The translations under genes and the position numbers were made by a program. This document shows positions 1,421 to 14,094 of a stretch of 15,278 bases of DNA, piece by piece; the stretch's first letter is position 1; every line of letters begins with the position of its first letter. The stretch is from Gallionellaceae bacterium (GTDB lineage Bacteria > Pseudomonadota > Gammaproteobacteria > Burkholderiales > Gallionellaceae). Below the pieces are notes generated by a model. The model made no database searches and was not told the DNA's origin. It saw nothing but the letters and a program-made list of their open reading frames with translations. The DNA lies in the NCBI GenBank assembly GCA_036523795.1, contig DATDDN010000106.1:1-15278 (forward strand), read 5' to 3'.

Positions 1421-3016
1421 TCAGCCTTGCCGGATCGCATCGAACTCCAGCTCAAACCGGGCCAGATATTTGCGCAAGCGGTCGGCATCGTTGGCTTGCT
1501 TCTTCAACTGCCGGGATGCAGAGAACAGCTTGCGGCCAGCCTCTGACAGGCTGGTCGAGTTACGGCACACCTCGATGACCGTGTTGAGCTGGCAGCGATC
1601 GAACATGTCCAGCTCATGACTGCGCGCGCCCAGCACCTGTTCCGCCATATCTTGCTCGACAGGCTCTGCCCAGGCCGCGCGGAGGCGCTCGATTTCTTCC
1701 AGTACGACAGGCTCGGTCACCCGCCCGGCCTCGGCCAGCGTGGCCATGCGTGTCACCGAGGCGGTCAGCTCGCGGAAATTGCCTGGCCAGCGCGCCTCCG
1801 CCGACCGGGCAAAATCCAGATAACGCCGTTTGGCTTCGACATTGAAGCGCACGCGTTCGCCGCTTTCTCCCGCATAACGCTCCAGCTCGAAATCGAGGTT
1901 GGGCTCGATGTCCTCACCGCGCCGCGCCAGACCCAGCAAATCAAATTTCCACATATTGATCCGCGCATAGAGGTCTTCGCGGAACCGTCCTTCCGCCACC
2001 CATTGCTGCAGGTTGCGATGGGTGCCGGCAATCAGCTGGAAGTTGCTCTCCACCTCGCGGTCGCCGCCGAACGGGAAGAAGCGCTTCTCTTCAATGGCCT
2101 TGAGCAGCATGGCCTGTTCGTCCAGCCCCAGCTCGCCGATCTCGTCCAGAAACAGCAGCCCGTCGTCTGCGGCACGCAACAGCCCGGAGCGCTCGCTCTG
2201 TGCGCCGGTAAATGCGCCGCGCACATGTCCAAACAGACTGGACATGGCCGAATCGCCGCGCAGGGTGGCGCAGTTCACTTCGACAAACCTGCCGGACAGG
2301 CGCTGCCGCTGGCGCTTCAACTCATACACGCGGCGAGCCAGGAAAGACTTGCCGGCACCGGTGGGACCGACCAGCAGCATCGGTGCACGCGAACGGCTGG
2401 CGACCTGTTCGATGCGCTCTATGGTGCGGTTGAATTCGGCATTGCGCGTGGCGATACCCGCCTTGAGGAACACCAGCGATTCGTCGTGCTCGCGCGCAAA
2501 GCGCTGAGCAATCTTGTTGTAACGCGACAGATCGAGGTCGATGATTTCATAGCTGCCCACTGAATCGGCCTGCTCTTTCTTGCGCGGCGGCGAAGTTTGC
2601 AGCAGGCGCGCAGGCAGGTAGCGCGCCTCGGCCAGCAGGAACCAGCAGATCTGCGCCACGTGAGTGCCGGTGGTGATGTGGATCAGGTAATCCTCGTGCT
2701 CGATGTCGAACGGGTAGCTGCGCGCCAGGTCGTGCAGCATGGTGTAGACCTCTTCGAAATCCCACGGGTCGCGCAGTTCGATCTGCACCCTGCGCACCTC
2801 GGTCTCCGGCGAAACCGAGGCAATATCGCGGCTCACCCGTTCGGCCAGCGCCGTGCTGCGCGCATCGTGCAGCAGCTCGAAACGGCTCACCAGCAAGTCC
2901 TCCTGCTGGCACAGCGCCACACTGGGACGCCACTTCTCCCAGCGCCCCATGCCTTTGCCGCCATGATCCAGCTGAGTGCCAAGAAATCCGAAAACCACCA
3001 GTCGCTTTTTATCCAT
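1421..3016 (-). CDS. rtcR: Sigma-54-dependent transcriptional activator RtcR (N-terminal CARF-type regulatory domain, central AAA+ sigma-54 activation domain, C-terminal HTH)
   Basis: 531 aa. N-terminus MDKKRLVVFGFLGTQLDHGGKG matches the E. coli RtcR N-terminus pattern (MRKTVAFGFVGTVLDYAG). Central Walker A GPTGAGKS, the GAFTGA sigma-54 contact motif and Walker B LLFLDEIGEL are present. The gene is divergent from an rtcB/rtcA operon. Confidence 0.92.
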   Translation of the reverse strand: MDKKRLVVFGFLGTQLDHGGKGMGRWEKWRPSVALCQQEDLLVSRFELLHDARSTALAERVSRDIASVSPETEVRRVQIELRDPWDFEEVYTMLHDLARSYPFDIEHEDYLIHITTGTHVAQICWFLLAEARYLPARLLQTSPPRKKEQADSVGSYEIIDLDLSRYNKIAQRFAREHDESLVFLKAGIATRNAEFNRTIERIEQVASRSRAPMLLVGPTGAGKSFLARRVYELKRQRQRLSGRFVEVNCATLRGDSAMSSLFGHVRGAFTGAQSERSGLLRAADDGLLFLDEIGELGLDEQAMLLKAIEEKRFFPFGGDREVESNFQLIAGTHRNLQQWVAEGRFREDLYARINMWKFDLLGLARRGEDIEPNLDFELERYAGESGERVRFNVEAKRRYLDFARSAEARWPGNFRELTASVTRMATLAEAGRVTEPVVLEEIERLRAAWAEPVEQDMAEQVLGARSHELDMFDRCQLNTVIEVCRNSTSLSEAGRKLFSASRQLKKQANDADRLRKYLARFELEFDAIRQG

Positions 3017-3111
3017 TTGGATAATTTACTCGATATATATCTATATATTTCAAATTGTCGCACAAGCAACAGCTCTCGCGCTCGAAATTTTACTTATTAA
3101 ATATCATGCGG

Positions 3112-3124
3112 TTATCAATATTTT
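3112..3124. promoter_or_regulatory. IHF-like site (TATCAAtattTTc vs WATCAANNNNTTR) between rtcR and the sigma-54 promoter
   Basis: 12/13 match to the IHF consensus. It lies about 25 nt upstream of the -24 element, where IHF-mediated bending is usual for sigma-54 promoters. An alternating AT tract (cgatatatatctatatattt, 3031-3050) lies further upstream. Confidence 0.3.
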
Positions 3125-3142
3125 CTATCCAACACCCCGGGC

Positions 3143-3158
3143 TGGCACACATTTCGCT
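3143..3158 (+). promoter_or_regulatory. Sigma-54 (-24/-12) promoter, TGGCAC-N5-TCGCT, driving the + strand rtc-type operon
   Basis: Perfect -24 element TGGCAC (3143-3148). GC of the -12 element is at 3156-3157, with the canonical GG-N10-GC spacing. It is adjacent to, and divergent from, the sigma-54 activator gene rtcR. Predicted TSS near 3168-3170. Confidence 0.6.
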
Positions 3159-3285
3159 GTATTGCTGGTGATCGCGGCAAAGCCCCAAAGCCCACGGGCA
3201 GAGGTTGACTAGCCTCTCCGGTGCGCGCCATCCAGGCCCAGGCCGGTCGATGACGTGCATGCCGCTGCTGCAATGTGCGATCGCG

Positions 3286-3334
3286 GGGCAATCTCTGGTG
3301 AGCCCGCCGGGTTCGATTCCCGGATTGCCCACCA
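3286..3334 (+). ncRNA. tRNA-like minihelix: 7-bp acceptor stem (GGGCAAT/ATTGCCC), T-arm (CCGGG-TTCGATT-CCCGG), discriminator A and CCA; no D or anticodon arm
   Basis: Read directly from the sequence. A canonical T-loop TTCGATT is closed by a 5-bp GC stem. A perfectly complementary acceptor stem ends in ACCA at 3331-3334. Only 14 nt (ctctggtgagcccg) replace the D and anticodon arms. It sits in the operon leader downstream of the sigma-54 promoter. Confidence 0.45.
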
Positions 3335-3405
3335 CTGGATAGCTCATTGGGTAGAGCAATCGACTAATCATCGATCTGTCGCGGGTTCGACTCCCGCTCC
3401 ACTGT
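3333..3405 (+). ncRNA. tRNA-like cloverleaf (probable tRNA mimic of the Y-RNA/YrlA type, or a pseudo-tRNA); anticodon position reads AAU
   Basis: Full 73-nt cloverleaf. Acceptor CACTGGA/TCCACTG (6/7 bp, C3-C70 mismatch), U8 and A9. D-arm GCTC-ATTGGGTA-GAGC with G18 and G19. Anticodon arm ATCGA-CTAATCA-TCGAT with U33 but a pyrimidine at position 37 and A34. 5-nt variable loop. T-arm GCGGG-TTCGACT-CCCGC with T54, T55, C56 and A58. No encoded CCA. It overlaps the CCA of the preceding minihelix by 2 nt. Confidence 0.55.
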
Positions 3406-3643
3406 CCTTACACGACAGATATGCAACACCGTAGTACCCGCCGGTTGCGGAATGCGCAAGCACCCGCCGCCGTCCGGGCCGGGCCTGCTGCCACACCGCC
3501 GGCAAGGTCGACAGAAGCAGGAGCGGAATGCTGTGCCGTACGGCAGCACCCGCAAGCGCTCTGCCCAGACCTCCCCGGCCGTGCCGCAGCAGGCACCCGC
3601 CAGGATGGCGCCCGACCGGCACATTTATCGAGGAGAAAGCAAC

Positions 3644-4783
3644 ATGCTGAAACGTTATGTCATCAAGAAAAATGAAAAAGGTTTGCTGTACAAGGACGGC
3701 GACTTCGAGCGCGTCCTCTCTGCAGGCCGCCACCTGTTTGTTGACCCGCTGCGCCGCCTGTCGCTGCAGACTTACCGGATCGACACCCAGATGAACGATG
3801 TATCCCTGGTGGATTACCTGCTCAAGACTGCGCCTGCGCAGGCCAATGAGCACTTTGTGTGCATGGAGCTGGCAGAAGACGAGGCCGGCCTGCGCTATGA
3901 GAACGGCCTGCTGGTCGAGGTGCTGCCGCCTGCCGCACGTCGTGTGTTCTGGAAAGGACTGCTACAGCACCGCCTGGACAAGGCCGACCTGAAGCAGGGA
4001 TACGCGCTGGATGCCCCCCTTGCCGGCCGCCTGGTGCAGACCGGCTTGCGTGGCCGCGCCCTGACCGGACTGACCGGTCTGCTGGTGGTGCAGATTCCCG
4101 CTTACCACGTCGGCATCCTGAAGGTGAACGGCAAGGTACAGCGCGTCCTTGAGCCCGGAGTGGAAGCGTTCTGGCGCTTCAACCGCGAGATCGAGGTAGA
4201 GCTGGTGGACACCCGCCTGCAGAACATGGAAGTCAGCGGGCAGGAGATCCTGACTCACGACAAGGTGGGGCTGCGCCTCAACCTCGCCGCCACCTGGCGC
4301 TACACCGATGCGCTGCAGGCGTTCGAAAAGCTGGTGAAGCCTGCCGAGCACCTGTACCGCGAGCTTCAGTTCGTGCTGCGTGCCGCAGTCGGAACACGCA
4401 GCCTGGATGAGCTGCTGGAAAACAAGCAGGTGATCGACGAGCTGGTCATCGCCCACGTCACCCGCAAGTTCGCCGGCTTCGGCATCGAGGTGACCAGCGC
4501 CGGCGTGAAGGACATCGTGCTGCCGGGCGAGATGAAGACCATCCTCGCCCAGGTGGTGGAGGCCGAGAAGTCGGCGCAGGCCAATGTGATCCGTCGCCGC
4601 GAGGAGACCGCAGCCACCCGTTCGCTGCTGAACACCGCCAAGGTGATGGAGGACAACCCCACCGCCCTGCGACTGAAAGAGCTGGAAACACTGGAGCGCG
4701 TGGCCGAGCGTATCGACCGCATCAGCGTATTCGGTGGACTGGACCAGGTGCTGAATGGCCTGGTGCAGATTCGCGGCGACTAA
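3644..4783 (+). CDS. SPFH/band-7 (stomatin-prohibitin-flotillin-HflK/C) domain protein, 379 aa; no N-terminal transmembrane segment, so apparently cytoplasmic
   Basis: ATG at 3644 with RBS GAGGAG 8 nt upstream. Canonical SPFH core (…IPAYHVGILKVNGKVQRVLEPGVEAFWRF…QEILTHDKVGLRLNLAATWRYTD…SLDELLENKQVIDELVIAHVTRKFAGFGIEVTSAGVKDIVLPGEMK…) is followed by a predicted coiled-coil. The N-terminal ~50 aa (VIKKNEKGLLYKDGDFERVLSAGRHLFVDP) look like a second, partial copy of the SPFH N-terminal strand region. The ORF-track start at 3452 only adds an Arg/Pro-rich, low-complexity extension typical of GC-rich non-coding DNA. Confidence 0.8.
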   Translation: MLKRYVIKKNEKGLLYKDGDFERVLSAGRHLFVDPLRRLSLQTYRIDTQMNDVSLVDYLLKTAPAQANEHFVCMELAEDEAGLRYENGLLVEVLPPAARRVFWKGLLQHRLDKADLKQGYALDAPLAGRLVQTGLRGRALTGLTGLLVVQIPAYHVGILKVNGKVQRVLEPGVEAFWRFNREIEVELVDTRLQNMEVSGQEILTHDKVGLRLNLAATWRYTDALQAFEKLVKPAEHLYRELQFVLRAAVGTRSLDELLENKQVIDELVIAHVTRKFAGFGIEVTSAGVKDIVLPGEMKTILAQVVEAEKSAQANVIRRREETAATRSLLNTAKVMEDNPTALRLKELETLERVAERIDRISVFGGLDQVLNGLVQIRGD

Positions 4784-4788
4784 GCCAT

Positions 4789-4810
4789 GGGCACGCCTGA
4801 TTGCGTGCCC
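4789..4810 (+). other. Intercistronic perfect hairpin GGGCACGC-ctgatt-GCGTGCCC (8-bp stem) with no U-tract
   Basis: Seen directly, 6 nt after the SPFH stop (4781-4783) and 18 nt before the next start codon. No downstream T-run, so more likely an mRNA processing or stability element, or a partial attenuator, than a terminator. Confidence 0.4.
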
Positions 4811-4827
4811 ACTTACCGGAGAACATC

Positions 4828-5238
4828 ATGACAAGTGGAAAACAGCGGCGTGCAGCCATCAAGGCAGCACGTTTGCGCCGGGAATTCAGGCAACAAGCGG
4901 CATTACGTGAAACGACCATGCCATCCTTGCTGCCCTTGCATACCGCAGCCGTCAACCCGGCCTGCCTGGCACCCTACAACAGCTATGGCGAGCCGGATTT
5001 CGTCAACCGCGGTTACTATCAGGACCAGCCGTTCGTGTGCGTGGATTGCGGCGCACCGGGGGTATGGAGCGCGCAGCGGCAAAAATGGTGGTATGAAATA
5101 GCCAAGGGCAACGTCTGGTCCTGCGCCATCCGCTGCCCCACCTGCCGTGCGCGACGCCGCGCCATCAGCGCAGAAGGGCGCCGCACCTGGATGGAAGGCA
5201 TGAAACACAAGCAGGCTGCCTCGCAGCCTGCCAAATAA
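4828..5238 (+). CDS. Small basic zinc-ribbon protein (136 aa) with two CxxC pairs (CVDC…CPTC), function unknown
   Basis: ATG at 4828 with GGAGAA 6 nt upstream. N-terminus Lys/Arg-rich (MTSGKQRRAAIKAARLRREFRQQ). FVCVDCGAP…(28 aa)…CAIRCPTCR forms a 4-Cys Zn-ribbon-like motif. Tightly packed between the SPFH gene and rtcB: 13 nt to the rtcB start, versus 44 nt after the SPFH stop. Confidence 0.6.
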   Translation: MTSGKQRRAAIKAARLRREFRQQAALRETTMPSLLPLHTAAVNPACLAPYNSYGEPDFVNRGYYQDQPFVCVDCGAPGVWSAQRQKWWYEIAKGNVWSCAIRCPTCRARRRAISAEGRRTWMEGMKHKQAASQPAK

Positions 5239-5251
5239 CAAGGAAACAGTT

Positions 5252-6469
5252 ATGGAACATCAAATTCTCGAGGTAGCCCACGGCAAGCCGATCAAGATGT
5301 GGACCCAGGGGGTGCCCGTTGAAGACGAGGCACGCCAGCAACTGATGAACACGGCACGGATGCCGTTCATCTTCAGCCACATTGCCGTGATGCCGGACGT
5401 GCATCTGGGCAAGGGGTCGACCATCGGCAGCGTGATCCCCACCCGTGGCGCCATCATTCCGGCAGCCGTCGGCGTGGACATCGGCTGCGGCATGATGGCG
5501 GCGCGCACCTCGCTCAAGGCGAGCGACCTGCCAGACTATCTGCACGGCCTGCGCAGCGCTATCGAGCGGGCTGTGCCGCATGGCCGCACCAGCACACGCA
5601 GCGGGCGTGACAAAGGTGCCTGGGATACGCCGCCGACAAGCGTGGATGCAATGTGGGGTGAACTGGTACCGGGCTTCAAGCGCATCATCGAGAAGCACCC
5701 GCGCCTGGCCAAAACCAACAACCACAAGCACCTGGGAACGCTTGGAACCGGTAACCACTTCATCGAAGTGTGCCTGGACGAGACCGACACGGTGTGGTTC
5801 ATGCTGCATAGCGGTTCGCGTGGTGTCGGGAATGCCATCGGCACCCACTTCATCGAACTGGCCCAGGCCGACATGCGCCAGCACATTGCCAATCTCCCGG
5901 ATCGCGACCTCGCCTATTTCGAAGAAGGCAGCTCACACTTCGCCGATTATGTCGAGGCGGTGGGGTGGGCGCAGGATTACGCGCGGCGCAATCGTGCAGT
6001 GATGATGCAGAACGTGGTTGCGGCTGCACGCCAGGTGATCGCCAAGCCGTTCGATGCCAGCGTGGAAGCGGTGAATTGCCACCACAACTATGTGCAGAAG
6101 GAAACGCATTTCGGCAGTGAGATTCTGGTCACCCGCAAGGGAGCTGTGTCCGCGCGCAAGGGTGAGCTCGGCATCATTCCCGGCTCGATGGGGGCAAAAA
6201 GCTACATCGTGCGCGGACTCGGCAACGAGGAATCGTTCTGCTCGTGCAGCCATGGTGCCGGCCGTACCATGAGCCGCAATGAAGCAAAGCGCCGCTTTAC
6301 GCTGGAAGACCAGATCGGTGCGACGGCCCATGTGGAGTGCCGCAAGGACGAGGCAGTGATCGACGAAATCCCGATGGCCTACAAGGACATCGATGCCGTG
6401 ATGGAAGCGCAGCGCGCCCTGGTGGAAGTCGTGCATACCCTGCGTCAGGTGGTATGCGTGAAGGGATGA
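5252..6469 (+). CDS. rtcB: RNA-splicing ligase RtcB (3'-phosphate/5'-hydroxyl RNA ligase)
   Basis: 405 aa, collinear over its whole length with E. coli RtcB. Examples: KMWTQGVPVE, MPFIFSHIAVMPDVHLGKGSTIGSVIPT, HLGTLGTGNHFIE, NCHHNYV, GNEESFCSCSHGAGR, TLRQVVCVKG. RBS AAGGAAA. Confidence 0.96.
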   Translation: MEHQILEVAHGKPIKMWTQGVPVEDEARQQLMNTARMPFIFSHIAVMPDVHLGKGSTIGSVIPTRGAIIPAAVGVDIGCGMMAARTSLKASDLPDYLHGLRSAIERAVPHGRTSTRSGRDKGAWDTPPTSVDAMWGELVPGFKRIIEKHPRLAKTNNHKHLGTLGTGNHFIEVCLDETDTVWFMLHSGSRGVGNAIGTHFIELAQADMRQHIANLPDRDLAYFEEGSSHFADYVEAVGWAQDYARRNRAVMMQNVVAAARQVIAKPFDASVEAVNCHHNYVQKETHFGSEILVTRKGAVSARKGELGIIPGSMGAKSYIVRGLGNEESFCSCSHGAGRTMSRNEAKRRFTLEDQIGATAHVECRKDEAVIDEIPMAYKDIDAVMEAQRALVEVVHTLRQVVCVKG

Positions 6470-6488
6470 ACAATTTCAGGAGAAGGAT

Positions 6489-7316
6489 ATGCAACACAAC
6501 AAGCCCGCCATACTGAGTGCGCACCCCATCGCACCCGAGGTGCGACAGCGAGTCATGCAGGCACTCGACGACATCGAGGCCAGGCACGACGTGCAAGTGC
6601 TGTTCGCTTGCGAATCCGGCAGCCGCGGCTGGGGTTTCGCCTCGCCGGACAGCGACTACGATGTGCGCTTCGTATACACGCACCGGCTGCCCTGGTATTT
6701 GAACGTGGAGCCGCAGCGCGATGTGATCGAACTGCCGATCAGCGACGAGCTGGACGTGAGCGGCTGGGAGCTGCGCAAAGCCTTGCGGCTGCTGCGCAGA
6801 TCCAATCCGACCCTGCTGGAATGGCTGGACTCGCCCGTGGTCTATCGCGAGAATCCGGCCGCAGCGGCACGCATGCGTACGCTCGCGCCGGATTTCTTTT
6901 CCAGGCTCAGCGTGCGCTACCACTATCTGGCGATGGCGAAGAAGAACTTTCGCGGCTATCTGCAGGGAGAGTCGGTGCGTCTGAAGAAATACCTGTATGT
7001 ATTGCGGCCCCTGCTCGCAGTGCGCTGGATAGACCGTGGCGGCGGAATGCCGCCCATGCGCTTTGCCGAGCTGGCGGATGCCATGCTTGATGACCTGCCC
7101 CTGCTGGGCGAGATCAATCGGCTGCTCGCCATCAAGATGCAGGCCAACGAGGCGGAATACAGCCCGCGCTGGCCGCTGGTGCACGCATTTATCGTCAGCG
7201 AACTGGAAAAGGTCGAGCGGCAGCTTGACTACAAAAAACCCGTGGGTGACTCGGGCGCGCTGGACCGATTTCTGGCGGATACCGTGCTGTCCTTCACGGC
7301 ACAGCAACTGATTTGA
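6489..7316 (+). CDS. Pol-beta-superfamily nucleotidyltransferase (GS…DxD minimal NTase; from memory it resembles the RtcB-linked RlaP/PF10127-type family)
   Basis: 275 aa. Motif FACESGSRGWGFASPDSDYDVRFVY is the GS-X9-13-DxD nucleotidyltransferase signature. RBS AGGAGAAGG. It lies between rtcB (stop 6469) and rtcA (start 7328) with 19 and 11 nt spacers, so it is an operon member. Confidence 0.85.
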   Translation: MQHNKPAILSAHPIAPEVRQRVMQALDDIEARHDVQVLFACESGSRGWGFASPDSDYDVRFVYTHRLPWYLNVEPQRDVIELPISDELDVSGWELRKALRLLRRSNPTLLEWLDSPVVYRENPAAAARMRTLAPDFFSRLSVRYHYLAMAKKNFRGYLQGESVRLKKYLYVLRPLLAVRWIDRGGGMPPMRFAELADAMLDDLPLLGEINRLLAIKMQANEAEYSPRWPLVHAFIVSELEKVERQLDYKKPVGDSGALDRFLADTVLSFTAQQLI

Positions 7317-7327
7317 GGTAACAAGAA

Positions 7328-8341
7328 ATGAAATTTCTGCTTCTCGATGGCGCCCACGGTGAAGGGGGCGGCCAGATCCTGCGCAGCGCGCTCACGCTTT
7401 CGATGATCACCGGACAGCCGTTCCGCATCGAGCGCATTCGCGCCGGGCGCAACAAGCCTGGCCTGTTGCGCCAGCACCTGACCGCAGTCAATGCTGCCGC
7501 CAGCATCTGCTCTGCAAGGGTCGGCGGCAATGCTGCCGGTTCGCAAACGCTGGAATTCATTCCCGGCCGCGTCAAGGGCGGGGATTACCGGTTTGACATC
7601 GGCACCGCCGGCAGTTGCACCTTGGTGCTGCAGACCGTGCTGCCCGCCTTGTGGTTTGCCGATCAGCCCAGCAGCCTGACCGTCAGCGGCGGCACGCACA
7701 ACGCTGCCGCGCCGCCGGCTGATTTTCTGATGCGCACCTGGCTGCCCGCGATGCAGCGCATGGGCGTCGACACGCATCTCGAGCTGCTGCGGCACGGCTT
7801 CTATCCGGCCGGAGGTGGCGCGGTACGCGCCAGCGTGCGTCCGCTAGCCGCCCTGCAGCCCTTGCACATGACGGAGCCCGGCCGCTCGGCTTCGGTACAG
7901 GCCATCGCCATAGTCGCCGCGTTGCCGGGCGATATTGCACGGCGCGAACTGACACGCCTGCGGCATCATTTCCCGGAGGCTGCGGAAGAAATGCGCGTGC
8001 TCGATGCCCGCGAAGGCCCGGGCAATGTGGTCATGCTCGAAGTGGCGCGCGACAATCACCGCGAGATTTTCAGTGCCTTCGGCGAGCGTGGCGTGAAGGC
8101 CGAGCTGGTCGCCGAACGCGCGGCCGGAGAGGCGCTACGCTACCTGGCCAGCAGGGCCTGCGTCAGCGAGCACCTGGCCGACCAGCTGGTGCTGCCCCTC
8201 GCACTGGCGGGTGGCGGCAGCTTTACGACCACGACGGTGTCGTCGCACCTTGCCAGCAACATGCAGGTCCTCCAGAAGTTCCTGCCGGTCGGGTTTGAGA
8301 TAACGCAGAACGGGGATATCCCGCAGATCGTTGTGCGATAA
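7328..8341 (+). CDS. rtcA: RNA 3'-terminal phosphate cyclase RtcA
   Basis: 337 aa. LDGAHGEGGGQILRSALTLSMITGQPFRIERIRAGRNKPGLLRQHLTAV… and GSCTLVLQTVLPALWFAD…LLRHGFYPAGGG…ADQLVLPLALAGGG are collinear with E. coli RtcA. Confidence 0.94.
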   Translation: MKFLLLDGAHGEGGGQILRSALTLSMITGQPFRIERIRAGRNKPGLLRQHLTAVNAAASICSARVGGNAAGSQTLEFIPGRVKGGDYRFDIGTAGSCTLVLQTVLPALWFADQPSSLTVSGGTHNAAAPPADFLMRTWLPAMQRMGVDTHLELLRHGFYPAGGGAVRASVRPLAALQPLHMTEPGRSASVQAIAIVAALPGDIARRELTRLRHHFPEAAEEMRVLDAREGPGNVVMLEVARDNHREIFSAFGERGVKAELVAERAAGEALRYLASRACVSEHLADQLVLPLALAGGGSFTTTTVSSHLASNMQVLQKFLPVGFEITQNGDIPQIVVR

Positions 8342-8515
8342 TTTGTCAGCCGTTTCCCCTGCTTCCAGTAGGGGATCTTCCCCAGGTTCACCCTCGCAAA
8401 TACCCCCTTCGGGGCATGGCCATCTACCACCAAGGTAAGCCACACCGAATGCCCGCGCAGTCTTATACTTGCAACTGAACTTTGCGGTTCTTTCGCTTAC
8501 TAACTGTCCGTGACC

Positions 8516-9631
8516 ATGTCCGAAAAGCTCATCCACATCGTCGATCACCGTCCCGGCATCCGCATGCCGCGGCTGGCTGGCGCGCTGGAGCAGCCCAGCG
8601 GTTCACTGCGCGACAGCCGTGGCCGCCTGCTGCAGGACCTGCGCATCTCGCTCACCGACCGCTGCAACTTCCGTTGCGTGTACTGCATGCCGAAGGAAAC
8701 CTTCGACAAGGATCACGTGTTCCTGCCGCGCAGCTCGCTGCTCAGCTTCGAAGAGATCGAGCGCATCGCGCGCATCTTCGTGGCGCATGGCGTGCACAAG
8801 ATCCGCCTCACCGGCGGCGAGCCGCTGCTGCGCAAGCACATCGAACAGCTGATTGAGCGCCTGGCACAACTGCGCACCCCGGACGGCCTGCCGCTCGACC
8901 TTACCCTCACCACCAATGGCTCACTGCTGGCGAAGAAGGCACGTGCCTTGAAAGACGCCGGGCTGAGCCGTGTCACCGTGTCGCTCGACTCGCTCGACGA
9001 CACCATCTTCCGCCGCATGAACGACGTCGACTTCCCCGTGTCGGAAGTGCTGCATGGCCTGGAAGCCGCGCACGAAGCCGGCCTCGGCCCGATCAAGGTG
9101 AACATGGTGGTGAAGGGCGGCATGAACGACCAGGAGATCGTGCCGATGGCGCGCTACTTCAAGGGCTCGCCGTTCATCCTGCGCTTCATCGAATACATGG
9201 ACGTCGGCACTTCCAACGGCTGGAAGATGGATGAGGTGATTCCCTCCGCCGAAGTGGTGCGCCGCATCCACGCCGAACTGCCGCTGGAAAAACTTGACCC
9301 CAACCAGCCCAGCGAAACCGCCGCGCGCTGGCGCTATGCCGATGGCTCCGGCGAGATCGGCGTCATCTCCAGCGTGACCCAGAGCTTCTGCCACGAATGC
9401 ACCCGAGCCCGCCTCTCCACCGAAGGTGTGTTGTACCACTGCCTGTTTGCCAGCGAAGGCCATGACCTGCGCGCCCTGCTGCGCGACGGCAGCAGCGACG
9501 AGGCCATCTCCAGCATCATCGCCCAGCTGTGGCGCGCGCGCAGCGACCGCTATTCCGAACTGCGCAGCCAGCAGACCGAGTACGCCGCACCCGAGCGCAA
9601 GCGGGTGGAGATGTCGTATATCGGTGGCTAA
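8516..9631 (+). CDS. moaA: GTP 3',8-cyclase MoaA (radical-SAM, molybdenum cofactor biosynthesis)
   Basis: The [10 protein letters not shown] radical-SAM cluster motif, …LTGGEPLL…, and the C-terminal [21 protein letters not shown]…MSYIGG match E. coli MoaA. An alternative in-frame GTG start at 8510 (MTMSEK) is possible. Confidence 0.93.
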
Positions 9632-10517: not shown

Positions 10518-10805
10518 CTAGAAATCCAACGGGTCCACATCCAGCGACCAGCGCAGCTTCCACGCACGCAGGAACTGCTGCAATGACTTGCGCGTGGCGG
10601 CGGGCACCACGCCGTACACTTCCACTTCACCCTGCACCGCCGTGGCAGCCGCATGCGCCTGCTGCGTGAAGGCATACACCTCGCCTTCGTTCTTGACCTC
10701 TGCCCGCAACAGCGCCTGGAGCACGAACGGAGGGAAGCCGGCCTGTTCGCGCTCGGCCAGCAGGGTGCGCGCCCAGGCCTCATAGTCGTGGACGATCAGC
10801 GCGCG
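10518..10805. repeat. Diverged direct repeat, copy A, of the priA 3'-terminal 369 bp (partner at 11890-12258)
   Basis: Manual alignment. Homology begins exactly at the stop codon and ends near 10805 / 12258. Copy A lacks 30 nt and 51 nt; the second deletion is bounded by TGGCGGC direct repeats. Confidence 0.7.
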
Positions 10806-10895
10806 GCCGTCAGGCGGAAAGAAGCTACGCAGCCAAAAATGGATCCTAAATTGGGTGGACACCTGGCGTACTCTCATGACAACTAGCCCAGCCAT
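10518..10895 (-). pseudogene. Relic of the priA 3' end: a novel 31-aa N-terminus fused to a shortened copy of the last ~94 codons of PriA
   Basis: Translation …ALIVHDYEAWARTLLAEREQAGFPPFVLQALLRAEVKNEGEVYAF…LRWSLDVDPLDF parallels the PriA C-terminus encoded at 11890-12258. Two in-frame deletions (30 and 51 nt), about 9% substitutions, and TAG vs TAA stop. A strong terminator sits immediately upstream of its ATG, so independent expression is unlikely. Confidence 0.6.
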
Positions 10896-11889: not shown

Positions 11890-12258
11890 TTAGAAATCCA
11901 GCGGGTCCACATCCAGCGACCAGCGCAGTTTCTGCGCCGGCAGCGCATCCAGCTGCGGCTTCCAGGCGCGCAGGAACTGCTGCAGCGCCTTGCGCGTGGC
12001 GGCCTGCACCAGCAGCTGCACCAGGTAGTGGTTGGCGCGCTTGGGCATGGCGGCGGGCACCACGCCGTACACTTCCACTTCGCCCTGCACGGCCGTGGCG
12101 GCCGCATGTGCCTGCTGCATAAAGGCGTACACCTCGCCTTCGTTCTTGCCCTCTGCCCGCAACAGTGCCTGGAACACGAACGGCGGGAAACCGGCCTGTT
12201 CGCGCTCGGCCAGCAGGGTGCGCGCCCAGGCTTCGTAGTCGTGCGCGATCAGCGCGCG
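11890..12258. repeat. Direct repeat copy B, the intact 3' end of priA (partner at 10518-10805)
   Basis: See copy A. This copy is contiguous with full-length priA. Confidence 0.7.
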
Positions 12259-14094
12259 GAACAGGGGATGCTCGGGAAAGGCGGTCTGCACCAGCACTTC
12301 GCCCGGCTTGTCGGCACGGCCGGCGCGACCGGCCACCTGTGACAGCTGGGCGAACAGTTTTTCCGAGGCGCGAAAGTCGCTGCTGTACAGCGCGCTATCC
12401 GGGTTGAGCACGCCCACCAGGGTGAGGTTCGGAAAGTCGTGACCCTTGGCCAGCATCTGGGTGCCCACCAGGATGTCCACCGCATCATCCTGGATCTTCT
12501 TGCGCATGGCGGCCCAGCTGCCCTTGTTGCGCGTGCTGTCGCGATCCACCCGCAGGATTCTGGCCTCAGGGAAGTGTGCCTGCAGCGCCGCCTCGATGCG
12601 CTGGGTGCCGATGCCGACCGGCTGCAGGTCGGTGTTGCCGCAGGAGGGACAGGCGTGCGGCACGCGCTGCTGATGGCCGCAGTGGTGGCAGCGCAGGCGG
12701 CGGTCCCTCAGGTGCAACACCAGCTTGCCCGCGCAATGGGGGCAGCCGGACAGCCAGCCGCAGGCGGTGCACATCAGCACCGGCGCATGGCCGCGGCGGT
12801 TGATGAACACCAGGCTTTGTTCCTTGCGCTGCAGGCGCTCACCCAGGGCGGCGAGCAGGGCCGGCGTCATGCCTTCGTGCAGCGGCACGGTGGTGGTGTT
12901 GAGGCAGCGCACCTCGGGCAGGCGCGCCTGCTGGTTGGCGCGCTGGCGCAGCGGCAGCAGGGTGTAGCGCCCGCTGTGCGCGTTGTGCCAGCTTTCCAGC
13001 GAGGGGGTGGCCGAGCCGAGCACGATGGGGACCGATCTTTGATTCGCTCGGAAGATGGCCACGTCGCGCGCCGAATAGCGCAGGCCGTCCTGCTGCTTGA
13101 ACGAGGCATCATGCTCTTCGTCCACGATGATCAGGCCCAGCTCGGGTAGCGGAGTGAATACTGACAGGCGGGTGCCCAGCACGATGCGCGCCTGCCCCGA
13201 CTGCGCGCGCAACCAGTTCTGTGTGCGCTCACCCTCGCTGAGGCCGCTGTGCAGGCTGACCAGCTCGGTCTGCGGGAAGCGGCTCTGGAAGTAATGCTCC
13301 AGCTGCGGGGTGAGGTTGATCTCAGGCACCAGCAGCAGCACTTGGCCACTGCGCTGCAGGAAGTGGTGCATCAGGTGCACGTAGACTTCGGTCTTGCCGC
13401 TGCCGGTGATGCCGTACAGCAGGAAGCTGGCATAGCCTGCGGAGCGGGTGACGGGGTCGACCGCCTGTTGCTGTTCGTCGGTGAGGGTGTGGGCGTTTTC
13501 AAACGCGACTTGGGTGAGTTCGCCCGCTGCCTTGGCATGCTCAGGCGACGATGTTGGCGCACACTCCCGAGCCCAACCGGTTTCCAGCAATGCCTTCAGT
13601 GTGGCCATCGCACTGGGCGAGAGCGCACGCACCTGCTGCGCGCCCAGCGGGCCGGCCTGCAGGGCCGCCAGGATGCGGTGCTGGACCACCTTGCGCTTGG
13701 GCAGCTGCGCCAGATCGAGCGCGCGTCCTGCTTCACTCAGTTCATAAGTCAGCGCCCGCTTCAGCGTGACAGGCTCGCCGCTGCGCACGCGCGCAGGCAG
13801 CGCGGCAAGTACGGTCATACCGAGTGGATGCTGGTAATAGTCGCTACAGAAGCGCAGCAGCTTGAGCAGGTCGGCGGGCAACGGCGGCACGTCGTCCAGC
13901 ACTTGCTGCACCGCTTTGATGCGCTCGGCGGGAACATCGGTTTCACTCAGGCACTCAAGCACCACGCCGACCATCTGCTGGCGGCCGAACGGCACCAGCA
14001 CGCGTTGCCCCACCACTGCAGTGAAATTTTCCGGCAGAAAATAATCAAACAGTGTTGACAGCGGCACGTCGAGTGCAACGCGAACAAAATTCAT
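11890..14094 (-). CDS. priA: Primosomal protein N' (replication-restart helicase PriA)
   Basis: 734 aa. N-terminus MNFVRVALDVPLSTLFDYFLPE (E. coli [22 protein letters not shown]). Walker A GITGSGKTEVY, DEEHD, the Cys-rich Zn-binding region CTACGWLSGCPHCAGKL…CHHCGHQQRVPHACPSCG, and a C-terminal …LDVDPLDF. Confidence 0.95.
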   Translation of the reverse strand: MNFVRVALDVPLSTLFDYFLPENFTAVVGQRVLVPFGRQQMVGVVLECLSETDVPAERIKAVQQVLDDVPPLPADLLKLLRFCSDYYQHPLGMTVLAALPARVRSGEPVTLKRALTYELSEAGRALDLAQLPKRKVVQHRILAALQAGPLGAQQVRALSPSAMATLKALLETGWARECAPTSSPEHAKAAGELTQVAFENAHTLTDEQQQAVDPVTRSAGYASFLLYGITGSGKTEVYVHLMHHFLQRSGQVLLLVPEINLTPQLEHYFQSRFPQTELVSLHSGLSEGERTQNWLRAQSGQARIVLGTRLSVFTPLPELGLIIVDEEHDASFKQQDGLRYSARDVAIFRANQRSVPIVLGSATPSLESWHNAHSGRYTLLPLRQRANQQARLPEVRCLNTTTVPLHEGMTPALLAALGERLQRKEQSLVFINRRGHAPVLMCTACGWLSGCPHCAGKLVLHLRDRRLRCHHCGHQQRVPHACPSCGNTDLQPVGIGTQRIEAALQAHFPEARILRVDRDSTRNKGSWAAMRKKIQDDAVDILVGTQMLAKGHDFPNLTLVGVLNPDSALYSSDFRASEKLFAQLSQVAGRAGRADKPGEVLVQTAFPEHPLFRALIAHDYEAWARTLLAEREQAGFPPFVFQALLRAEGKNEGEVYAFMQQAHAAATAVQGEVEVYGVVPAAMPKRANHYLVQLLVQAATRKALQQFLRAWKPQLDALPAQKLRWSLDVDPLDF

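Follow-up and report, generated by a model that had tools for sequence, protein, structure and literature searches.

A probable RtcR/sigma-54-controlled RNA-repair operon with a structured, tRNA-like leader RNA in a Gallionellaceae bacterium

The window analysed here, a stretch of 15,278 nucleotides from a Gallionellaceae bacterium (contig DATDDN010000106.1), carries rtcR and, divergent from it, a sigma-54 promoter, a leader with two tRNA-like modules and five genes. Every one of these elements was confirmed at its position (Table 1), in agreement with a preliminary description of this DNA. Domain assignments lay well above the curated cut-offs of Pfam and NCBIfam: RtcR scored 828.6 bits against NF038308 (cut-off 650), with 292 bits for the RtcR/CARF domain (PF06956) and 169 bits for Sigma54_activat, and RtcA reached 461 bits against NF003246 (cut-off 352). 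The tight spacing reported previously (11-44 nt) was borne out, as the spacers measure 44, 13, 19 and 11 nt from the Band-7 gene onwards. Scanning positions 2900-8700 revealed neither an internal sigma-70-like promoter nor a terminator on the + strand, and the operon is flanked by genes for MoaA, PriA and HemE.

Table 1. Positions of the operon features in the window and the basis of each assignment.
Feature	Coordinates	Strand	Basis
rtcR: CARF-type sensor domain, AAA+ sigma-54 activator, HTH	1421..3016	-	NF038308, Pfam
rtcR-operon control region	3017..3142	.	Column conservation, 53-locus MAFFT alignment
Sigma-54 promoter, TGGCAC-N5-TCGC (-24/-12)	3143..3158	+	Read directly, aligned in relatives
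Leader, ~475 nt, conserved structured non-coding RNA	3170..3643	+	Alignment, RNAalifold
5' domain	3189..3266	+	Covariation, nhmmer
tRNA-like module 1 (minihelix type)	3286..3330	+	Helix read-out, T-arm scan
tRNA-like module 2 (cloverleaf, 'b7a-tRNA' type)	3333..3405	+	Rfam, ARAGORN
Conserved hairpin 3' of module 2 (CTGTC/GACAG)	3402..3418	+	Compensatory pairs
3' domain: long irregular hairpin	3440..3620	+	Covariation, nhmmer
Shine-Dalgarno sequence GAGGAG	3630-3635	+	Upstream of Band-7 ATG 3644
Soluble SPFH/Band-7 ('slipin') protein, 379 aa	3644..4783	+	PF01145
Treble-clef zinc protein, Arg/Lys-rich tails	4828..5238 (136 aa, likely ATG 4828)	+	Pfam zf_Tbcl
RtcB 3'-phosphate/5'-OH RNA ligase	5252..6469	+	Pfam RtcB 437.9 bits, full length
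RlaP Pol-beta-superfamily nucleotidyltransferase	6489..7316	+	Pfam PF10127 324.8 bits, full length
RtcA RNA 3'-terminal phosphate cyclase	7328..8341	+	NF003246, Pfam RTC and RTC_insert

The Band-7 protein consists of a beta-rich N-terminal region (aa 1 to ~140), an SPFH domain (PF01145, 108 bits over aa 150-321) and a long C-terminal helix. Its highest Kyte-Doolittle value over 19 residues was 1.46, confirming the proposed lack of a transmembrane segment. The open reading frame of the zinc protein opens at a TTG (4801) and ends at 5238, giving 145 aa, and the ATG at 4828 yields the 136 aa assigned earlier. The protein matched the treble-clef family zf_Tbcl with 47.6-47.8 bits and has cysteines at 80, 83, 108, 112 and 115 (145-aa numbering).

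The promoter, which had been proposed from the window, was read directly, with TGGCAC-N5-TCGC spanning 3143-3157, and its pattern (TGGCA[C/T]-N5-xxGC) aligned at the same position in 53/53 loci with a divergent rtcR, 40 of which also met the strict sigma-54 pattern. In the 53-locus MAFFT alignment, the control region contains short conserved blocks (GATAA at ~3020-3024 and TCA..TTATC at ~3104-3117), possibly sites for an activator or IHF. Relatives of the Band-7 gene were found in at least 527 species genomes, and we counted gene content in a set of 53 loci with full flanks. RtcR (divergent) was present in 40/53, RtcB (downstream of the Band-7 gene) in 45/53, RlaP in 30/53, RtcA in 23/53 and the zinc protein in 12/53, and eight loci had all six. 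The zinc protein is thus an accessory of a minority of loci and no core component. We found the gene order again in 80 loci belonging to Rhodocyclales, Burkholderia, Ralstonia, Pseudomonas and Comamonadaceae, and the layout across Beta- and Gammaproteobacteria, which refutes an arrangement unique to this strain. The operon is real and well conserved in bacteria. A single stress-sensing switch governs its ligase, cyclase, nucleotide-adding enzyme, soluble scaffold protein and tRNA-shaped RNAs. We also observed, in RtcR-less loci, that tRNA gene arrays adjoin the same Band-7 module.

Taken together, we consider it likely that the locus is a stress-inducible RNA-repair operon of the 'Band-7/tRNA-like RNA/RtcB' type under RtcR and sigma-54. 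What we established directly are its parts, their order, the promoter, their conservation and the structure of the RNA. The functional reading proposed earlier, a single RtcR/sigma-54 unit combining ligase, cyclase, template-independent nucleotidyltransferase and tRNA-shaped RNAs placed like the Salmonella Y RNAs, is supported by the domain assignments together with the conservation of promoter and neighbourhood.

The leader runs from near 3170 to the ATG at 3644, and its length and its two tRNA-like modules were as first described. Conserved blocks extend from end to end in the 53-locus alignment, and the lengths of its indels are not multiples of three. RNAalifold on 21 leaders predicted 87 pairs, 60 of them with compensatory changes, and searches of the leader against Rfam returned the tRNA model and otherwise weak sub-threshold matches, so that no further Rfam family fitted it. 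Over its whole length the leader is a multi-domain RNA whose parts covary: a 5' domain, a module resembling a minihelix, a cloverleaf module, a hairpin and, over ~180 nt, a 3' domain. Helices of the 5' domain are 3197-3204/3213-3219, 3220-3228/3253-3263 and 3231-3236/3243-3250, probably closed by 3189-3191/3264-3266. Across 40 sequences (alignment A3), 95.5% of its cells were paired, versus 38-50% with slid partners; its covariation score was 0.509 versus at most 0.117, and 15/20 pairs showed compensatory changes. The 3' domain behaved similarly in 33 sequences (alignment A4), with 92.1% of cells paired versus 30-44%, a score of 0.541 versus at most 0.098, and 32/37 compensatory pairs. In this window, the hairpin and the module-2 acceptor strand overlap by the final 3 nt of that strand; the hairpin's pairs (columns 308-324 of alignment A2) include compensatory changes, as at 3405-3415, where 20 sequences have T-A and 25 have C-G. 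With nhmmer, the 5' domain was found in 78/80 loci, 330-495 nt upstream of the Band-7 gene and including RtcR-less loci (both loci without a match are truncated contigs), and the 3' domain in 57/80, being undetected in Comamonadaceae-type loci.

The leader is invariably found immediately upstream of the Band-7 gene, on the same strand and at a near-fixed distance, and 10 nt separate the end of its 3' domain from the Shine-Dalgarno sequence, as would be expected if it were a structured 5' UTR that mainly controls the downstream genes without a trans-acting RNA. Such control could rest on RNase P, Z, E or III processing, on mRNA stabilisation, or on the leader serving in cis as a source of RtcR-activating fragments that amplify induction, since cleaved tRNA-like leaders could supply the cyclic-phosphate tRNA fragments that activate RtcR (PMC7790460). 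However, the leader contained no terminator-like element, the Shine-Dalgarno sequence lies outside the predicted helices, the element is kept in RtcR-less loci, and YrlA fragments were not detected on induction in Salmonella (PMC7790460). We therefore regard a mainly cis-regulatory leader as quite improbable.

Module 1 has a perfect 7-bp acceptor (GGGCAAT/ATTGCCC, 3286-3292/3324-3330), a 3-bp hairpin (3293-3302) and a canonical T arm (3307-3323, loop TTCGATT), lacks both D and anticodon arms, and gave weak partial Rfam matches to mascRNA, YrlA and Deinococcus Y RNA. Two canonical T arms were present in 63/81 leaders. The module-1 acceptor keeps 6-7 bp with highly diverse sequences among leaders and therefore covaries; it is mostly separated from the T stem by 12-22 nt in Betaproteobacteria and by 39-42 nt, a full cloverleaf, in Pseudomonas. 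Module 2 comprises a D arm (3342-3357), an anticodon-like arm (3359-3375, loop CUAAUCA), a T arm (3381-3397) and an acceptor (3333-3339/3398-3404), and its anticodon stem and acceptor covary. A + strand tRNA-like element occurred in the upstream leader of 57/80 related loci, mostly 230-300 nt before the Band-7 start, and accompanies the Band-7 gene even without rtcR.

Module 2 scored 53.2 bits with the Rfam tRNA model (RF00005), above its gathering threshold, and was called tRNA-Ile(AAT) by ARAGORN, and in P. aeruginosa its counterpart carries a tRNA gene annotation (PMC13637947). These calls would fit an ordinary tRNA-Ile gene that, with an unrelated SPFH/zinc-protein cassette, came to lie between rtcR and rtcBA by chance. 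Yet the window copy has the anticodon AAU, a pyrimidine at position 37 and a C-C mismatch in its acceptor, and it lacks CCA; the 'anticodons' of related loci vary freely and are often malformed, reading 'Met', 'Val', 'Thr', 'Asn', 'Leu', 'Arg' or 'Ser' at the same position; and the arrangement is kept in dozens of genera. Coincidence is already contradicted by these observations and is extremely improbable.

The elbow-forming D and T arms are near invariant whereas the anticodon arm is free in sequence and length, a pattern expected of a shape mimic. Instead of repair cofactors, the tRNA-like RNAs might be sponges or competitive inhibitors of an anticodon nuclease or another tRNA-targeting toxin during repair, stabilised or sequestered by the SPFH protein. 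[quoted passage not shown] However, a decoy for anticodon nucleases should keep a target-like anticodon loop, and this loop is the least conserved part, sometimes 2-4 nt off; the conserved 5' and 3' domains and the strict coupling to SPFH would also be left unexplained. We consider a decoy role unlikely, though deserving of some weight.

The operon type has already been described, and its architecture is not new. According to secondary sources, Burroughs & Aravind (2016) reported that RtcB adjoins a protein of the Band-7 type and a 'band 7-associated tRNA' (cited by Wang et al., 10.1101/312249, where redundancy with Rsr/YrlA is proposed). Their system is reported to have likewise a tRNA-like ncRNA predicted next to its Band-7 gene and RlaP as recurrent nucleotidyltransferase partner, with a scaffold and cognate RNA role proposed in parallel to Ro/Y RNA. 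[quoted passage not shown] Because the Band-7/b7a-tRNA association, the RlaP context and the PAO1 cluster are published, the novelty implied by the preliminary description is unsupported. Loci from other Pseudomonas species (L036-L071) align with the window over the whole leader, but their module 1 is a full cloverleaf and not a minihelix; the zinc protein, for which the reported PA4582-PA4585 cluster has no gene slot, is present in some of the Pseudomonas loci that we fetched and absent from others. Compared with the Burroughs & Aravind system as known through secondary sources, the window RNA has at least five covarying elements over ~450 nt and a second, minihelix-type module, of which the accessible literature makes no mention. 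Any novelty may be limited to the large structured leader RNA.

The Salmonella operon rsr-yrlB-yrlA-rtcB-rtcA shares RtcR/sigma-54 control, RtcB and RtcA, and a tRNA-mimicking ncRNA inside the operon. The leader gave a partial YrlA match where the T arm of module 1 meets the D arm of module 2 (17.8 bits in the window; 33.4 bits, E 2e-5, in the related locus L052), below the gathering score of 69. In contrast to Salmonella, no TROVE/Ro60 was found within the window, in agreement with the absence of Ro60/Rsr noted earlier, and an SPFH protein stands in its place; the RNAs lie ahead of the first gene and not between rsr and rtcB, and a Ro-binding stem was not identified in the window leader. E. 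coli rtcR/rtcBA has the same divergent activator, sigma-54 promoter, ligase and cyclase, but its operon has two genes, with no scaffold protein, operon-encoded RNA or nucleotidyltransferase.

RtcR is switched on by tRNA fragments bearing cyclic-phosphate ends (PMC7790460). By analogy with characterised homologues, its CARF domain would sense tRNA fragments ending in 2',3'-cyclic phosphate and open the promoter; RtcA would generate cyclic-phosphate ends, RlaP would restore nucleotides trimmed off the 3' end of cut RNA, and RtcB would join 5'-OH ends to ends bearing 3'-P or 2',3'>P. In vitro, RlaP orthologues from Pseudomonas extend RNA 3' ends with nucleotides, and RlaP partly restores tRNA-Asp charging, but the product is a 3'-OH that RtcB cannot directly seal, a problem raised by the RlaP authors (PMC12776372) that counts against this repair pathway. 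Nor is the enzymatic pathway fixed, because RtcA is missing from many related loci, and so are RlaP and the zinc protein. Judging from the anatomy of the operon, the first ~450 nt of the transcript would be a folded RNA and not a spacer, probably excised by tRNA-processing enzymes and probably joining the soluble, oligomerising SPFH protein in a ribonucleoprotein scaffold. Broken tRNAs would be recognised by this scaffold, or presented by it, on behalf of the three enzymes, a role parallel to that proposed for Ro60 and Y RNA in Salmonella, with the basic zinc protein as an optional RNA-binding accessory.

The structure model of the Band-7 protein was of moderate confidence (pLDDT 69), with a poorly modelled C-terminus. 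Its predicted SPFH fold and long helix resemble those of ring- or cage-forming stomatin, HflK/C and prohibitin. Unlike membrane SPFH scaffolds (stomatin, HflK/C, prohibitin, flotillin), it has no membrane anchor and no NfeD partner in the window, and its ~140-aa N-terminal region lies outside Pfam coverage. The Pfam Vault repeat was not detected in it, and its likeness to major vault protein (MVP) is weaker than that to stomatin or prohibitin.

All six proteins that the preliminary description assigned to an RtcR/sigma-54 repair operon match their families far above the curated thresholds in Pfam and NCBIfam HMM searches. The genes from Band-7 to rtcA lie on one strand with intergenic spacers of 44, 13, 19, and 11 nt, and less than 470 nt separates the Band-7 gene from rtcB. 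A sigma-54 -24/-12 element precedes them, with a predicted start about 12 nt further on, and the Band-7 ATG (3644) follows a GAGGAG Shine-Dalgarno sequence; the spacers of 11-44 nt, the sigma-54 promoter, and the leader of about 475 nt were each borne out when the sequence was read again. Between 2900 and 8700 we found neither a sigma-70-like promoter nor a plus-strand terminator-like site, and rtcB and rtcA are predicted to share one transcription unit. The gap between the rtcA stop (8341) and the start of the same-strand moaA ORF (8510) contains no terminator-like site either (8342-8509), and given this gap, transcription from the repair operon into moaA may occur. The neighbours are moaA, priA, and hemE, and the scanned window ORFs gave no TROVE/Ro60 match, in agreement with the earlier statement that Ro60/Rsr is absent. 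A 125-aa ORF on the minus strand (10518-10895) matches the PriA C-terminal domain (E 1.6e-6) about 1 kb from full-length priA (11890-14094, minus strand), and may be a piece of a duplicated priA.

Features of the operon and its leader in the window, with the occurrence of the components among the 53 related loci with full flanks
Feature	Position	Strand	Match or structure	Full-flank loci
RtcR	1421-3016	-	NCBIfam NF038308 RNA_repair_RtcR, 828.6 bits (cut-off 650); PF06956 RtcR/CARF and PF00158 Sigma54_activat	40/53 (divergent)
Sigma-54 -24/-12 element	3143-3157		TGGCAC-N5-TCGC	
Leader, 5' domain	~3189-3266			
Leader, module 1	3286-3330		Minihelix type: perfect 7-bp acceptor GGGCAAT/ATTGCCC, 3-bp hairpin, canonical T arm	
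Leader, module 2	3333-3405		Cloverleaf: RF00005, 53.2 bits (gathering score 29); ARAGORN 'Ile-AAT'	
Hairpin 3' of module 2	3402-3418		Covarying pairs	
Leader, 3' domain	3440-3620		Long irregular hairpin	
SPFH/Band_7	3644-4783	+	Band_7, 108 bits	
Zinc protein (zf_Tbcl treble clef)	ORF 4801-5238, probable ATG 4828 (136 aa)	+	zf_Tbcl, 47.6-47.8 bits	12/53
RtcB	5252-6469	+	Pfam RtcB, 437.9 bits	45/53 (downstream of Band-7 gene)
RlaP	6489-7316	+	PF10127, 324.8 bits	30/53
RtcA	7328-8341	+	NCBIfam RtcA, 461 bits (cut-off 352)	23/53
All six components, window-like				8/53 (one Proteobacteria MAG, Azonexus, six Pseudomonas)

At least 527 confirmed relatives were obtained by scanning genomes with an alignment of 12 Band-7 proteins; the best 80 of these loci were analysed and belong to Gallionellaceae, Accumulibacter, Thiobacillus, Azoarcus, Azonexus, Dechloromonas, Burkholderia, Ralstonia, Pseudomonas, and many Comamonadaceae-type Burkholderiales. 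Components were counted by tblastn and HMM mapping in the 53 of these best 80 loci that had full flanks, rather than by greedily taking the longest ORFs of all 80, a count that long antisense ORFs distorted where the DNA is rich in GC. The promoter could be aligned as TGGCA[C/T]-N5-xxGC in 53/53 loci with a divergent rtcR. Because the components recur among the full-flank loci and the promoter aligns in all 53 loci with a divergent rtcR, a neighbourhood unique to this strain, which had been set beforehand as the outcome that would count against the operon, is ruled out.

Several loci depart from the window arrangement. A HEAT-repeat protein of 450-470 aa lies between rtcB and rlaP in four of them (L010:9398-10810, L014:8931-10286, L036:9350-10729, and L048:9351-10727), recognised by Pfam HEAT_2 (E 1e-11 to 2e-15) in three and in L048 by position and length only; it may be an additional scaffold component of the repair system. 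Other operon inserts are proteins without family assignment, none of them TROVE, and a scan of ORFs from the related loci, 10 from operon gaps and the 10 large ones that recur most often, likewise gave no TROVE; the large unknown ORFs of these loci form 162 clusters. Locus L041 has no RtcR, and its Band-7 gene is followed by one for a ClpP-like SDH-type serine protease (L041:7713-8726; PF01972, E 9e-10). Three loci carry a second RtcB paralogue beyond rtcR, with 59-76% identity to the window RtcB (L006:2709-3902, minus strand; L029:1649-2827, plus strand; L031:1925-3133, minus strand), so that two ligase genes surround a single regulator. Band-7 proteins 68-74% identical to that of the window were assigned to an Actinomycetota MAG (P0041), a Desulfobulbus MAG (L016), and Rhodospirillales (L012), all of them distant phyla; the module may have been transferred laterally, or the contigs may be mis-binned. 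In the spacer between rtcR and the promoter, an inverted pair, GATAA (3020-3024) and TCA..TTATC (3104-3117), is kept across 53 loci; these blocks are candidate RtcR or IHF sites.

The leader takes the analysis beyond the preliminary description. In the alignment of the rtcR-to-Band-7 intergenic region from 53 loci, conserved blocks span the entire leader and extend beyond its tRNA-like part, and RNAalifold predicted 87 pairs for 21 diverse leaders, with compensatory changes in 60 of these pairs. The tRNA-like modules are flanked by a 5' and a 3' domain, whose structures were tested on the alignments that they came from, which favours the unslid register, and the margins were large: paired cells amounted to 95.5% in the 5' domain (38-50% when slid) and 92.1% in the 3' domain (30-44% when slid), covariation to 0.509 (at most 0.117 when slid) and 0.541 (at most 0.098 when slid), and compensatory pairs to 15/20 and 32/37, respectively. 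The 5' alignment (40 sequences) was not structure-fitted; that of the 3' domain held 33 sequences. A less likely, rival explanation for these structures is that the leader is purely cis-regulatory. The 5' domain was found by nhmmer 330-495 nt upstream of the Band-7 start in 78/80 loci, including loci without rtcR, and the two loci in which it was not detected are truncated contigs. The 3' domain was found in 57/80 loci and went undetected by nhmmer in Comamonadaceae-type loci. A structured leader is coupled to the Band-7 gene, an RNA partner that far exceeds one tRNA-like unit in size.

Two other readings of the leader were discarded. An in-frame ATG at 3452 raised a coding interpretation, which was rejected because of the covarying helices and the non-triplet indels. 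Long-range pairing of the 5' domain with the block 3436-3446 was also dropped, as the signal of the all-against-all column scan was dominated by clade-level co-variation.

The preliminary description had recognised two tRNA-like modules in the leader. The D and T arms, of which the tRNA elbow is built, hardly vary among loci, and the length of the anticodon arm differs. A plus-strand tRNA-like element was detected by ARAGORN in the upstream leader of 57/80 loci, mostly 230-300 nt ahead of the Band-7 start (239 nt for module 2 in the window). Its 'anticodons' correspond to Met, Ile, Val, Thr, Asn, Leu, Arg, Ser, Ala, Phe, or Lys, or the loop is malformed with 2 or 4 nt in their place. In the window, the loop reads CUAAUCA with C at position 37, pair 3-70 of the acceptor is a C-C mismatch, CCA is missing, and the acceptor's 3' strand is shared in part with the next hairpin; in most loci only 5-6 of the 7 acceptor pairs are formed. 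The module matches the tRNA covariance model and has neither the conserved anticodon and normal loop nor the intact acceptor and CCA context of a decoding tRNA. Module 1 lacks both the D arm and the anticodon arm. In 63/81 leaders there are two canonical T arms, spaced by about 73 nt, and the first is enclosed by a helix of 6-7 bp with many unrelated sequences (among them GGGCAAT/ATTGCCC, GTGCGAG/CTCGCAC, CGACGTT/AACGTCG, GGTGAGG/CTTCACC, and GGCGCGG/CCGCGCC), so that the module-1 acceptor covaries. From this covariation and the paired T arms, the two modules are correctly recognised and are a trait of the family. Between the module-1 helix and the T stem there are mostly 12-22 nt in the minihelix type of the Betaproteobacteria, and 39-42 nt in Pseudomonas, where ARAGORN reports a second full cloverleaf. 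An encoded CCA for module 1 was considered and rejected, since the 'ACCA' that follows the window acceptor is not kept from locus to locus.

The tRNA-like modules are mimics and not decoders. Such mimics might alternatively serve as nuclease decoys; as carriers of the operon include tractable organisms (P. aeruginosa, Burkholderia, and Ralstonia), a scaffold, guide, or decoy role of the tRNA-shaped RNAs is directly testable.

In agreement with the earlier reading, the SPFH protein has no segment of transmembrane strength: on the Kyte-Doolittle scale, hydropathy over 19 residues peaks at 1.46, within a part that the model builds as beta strands. It has the SPFH fold and subsequent coiled-coil helix of the stomatin/HflKC type, but differs from these membrane scaffolds in having no N-terminal transmembrane or hairpin anchor. 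The AlphaFold model (pLDDT 69 overall, 81-89 for the N-terminal 130 residues) consists of a beta-rich N-terminal region, the SPFH domain, and a long helix, and the C-terminal third is nearly invariant among Band-7 relatives. Residues 1-150 modelled alone reached a pLDDT of 56, unusable for a fold search, and Pfam at E<=10 returned only weak Band_7 self-similarity for the N-terminal region (E 0.11). Major vault protein (MVP) was among the structural matches, with scores lower than those of stomatin and prohibitin, and we make no claim of vault homology. In a metagenomic relative of 525 aa (P0005), about 145 aa of the beta-rich region are internally duplicated, which suggests that this region is an independent, repeatable module.

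With RtcR-regulated rtcBA operons, the window shares the divergent bEBP with its CARF and AAA+ sigma-54 domains, the -24/-12 promoter, RtcB, and RtcA. The 2016 abstract by Burroughs and Aravind reportedly names SPFH/Band-7 modules, 'a novel tRNA-like molecule', and a novel nucleotidyltransferase as components of repair systems. As these Band-7/b7a-tRNA (band 7-associated tRNA)/RtcB systems are presented in secondary accounts, the window also shares with them a Band-7 gene beside RtcB and a tRNA-like ncRNA beside Band-7 (Burroughs & Aravind 2016). Both the name RlaP and the placement of its gene between rtcB and rtcA in Pseudomonas have been published (PMC12776372). In P. aeruginosa PAO1, PA4582 and PA4584 are listed among the operon members (PMC8619066), and PA4581.1 is an odd 'tRNA-Arg4' without CCA in the rtcR-rtc intergenic region (PMC13637947). 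Given these published Band-7/b7a-tRNA, RlaP, and PAO1 layouts, the operon architecture is already known; the functional interpretation in the preliminary description was right, its claim of novelty overstated, and the locus adds nothing to known gene architecture beyond one more member. We found no description of the minihelix module or of either flanking domain of the leader in the accessible literature, in which Burroughs & Aravind 2016 is represented by secondary accounts, and the 5' and 3' domains have no Rfam family.

The Rsr (Ro60)/Y RNA module differs in having a TROVE Ro60 orthologue, of which there is none in the scanned ORFs of the window or of the part-surveyed 80 loci. b7a-tRNA occasionally adjoins Rsr, and YrlA occasionally adjoins Band-7 (Wang et al., 10.1101/312249). 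In Rfam searches with the leaders of the window, one Pseudomonas, and one Burkholderia, only tRNA scored above threshold; below it were YrlA, Deinococcus Y RNA, and mascRNA, together with chance-level matches to unrelated families. The YrlA model (RF02553, gathering score 69) gave 17.8 bits for the window, 33.4 for L052, and 18.8 for L022, over model positions ~22-89 only. This partial match corresponds to the junction of the module-1 T arm and the module-2 D arm (33.4 bits, E 2e-5 in Pseudomonas), and it hints at kinship of the tRNA-like modules with Y-RNA-like tRNA mimics, short of YrlA membership.

Operons of this type bear on two questions of RNA repair: which substrates and cofactors bacterial RtcB uses in nature, and what tRNA mimics encoded in operons, such as YrlA, do. 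The analysis establishes the gene content, gene order, and tight spacing of the locus, the conservation of its sigma-54 promoter, and a structured leader. By analogy with Salmonella and E. coli, RtcR would be activated when it binds tRNA fragments that end in a 2',3'-cyclic phosphate (PMC7790460, PMC9650030). If the enzymes act like their characterised homologues, RtcA would produce cyclic-phosphate RNA ends, RtcB would join 3'-P or 2',3'>P to 5'-OH, and RlaP would extend RNA 3' ends. RlaP adds nucleotides to RNA 3' ends and partly restores charging of tRNA-Asp missing a nucleotide; its products carry a 3'-OH and are not ligated by RtcB (PMC12776372). Judging from the anatomy of the locus, the leader is probably processed into a stable RNA, which with an oligomeric soluble SPFH protein would form a substrate-capture scaffold, paralleling the role proposed for Ro60/Y RNA, and the zinc protein would be an optional basic RNA-binding accessory. 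In its full form, this proposal makes the whole leader of ~450 nt a single multi-domain ncRNA and the obligate partner of a cage- or ring-forming soluble SPFH protein, together a vault- or Ro-like RNP that captures broken tRNAs for RtcB, RlaP, and RtcA; we offer it as a conjecture that is rather unlikely to hold as a whole. In this widespread type of operon, the repair enzymes are accompanied by a soluble SPFH protein and by a large RNA with strong covariation, and in a repair system that is experimentally almost untouched this RNA partner is a concrete lead.

In Comamonadaceae-type loci without rtcR, the Band-7/tRNA-like module is preceded on the same strand, ~1-5 kb upstream of the Band-7 gene, by 1-14 arrayed tRNA genes that look ordinary and have canonical anticodons (L039, L040, L047, L061, L064, L065, L069, L070, L073, L075, L077, L079, and L080; for example, 14 genes in L077 and 9 in L075). 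This arrangement echoes the cyanobacterial tRNA arrays linked to rtcB (PMC8421152), and suggests a combined tRNA-backup/repair island. Five Pseudomonas leaders of 435-450 nt (L049, L063, L060, L037, and L045) have lost one or both tRNA-like modules, or carry them in degraded form, and keep the 5' and 3' domains; they are natural deletion variants, useful for asking which part of the RNA matters.
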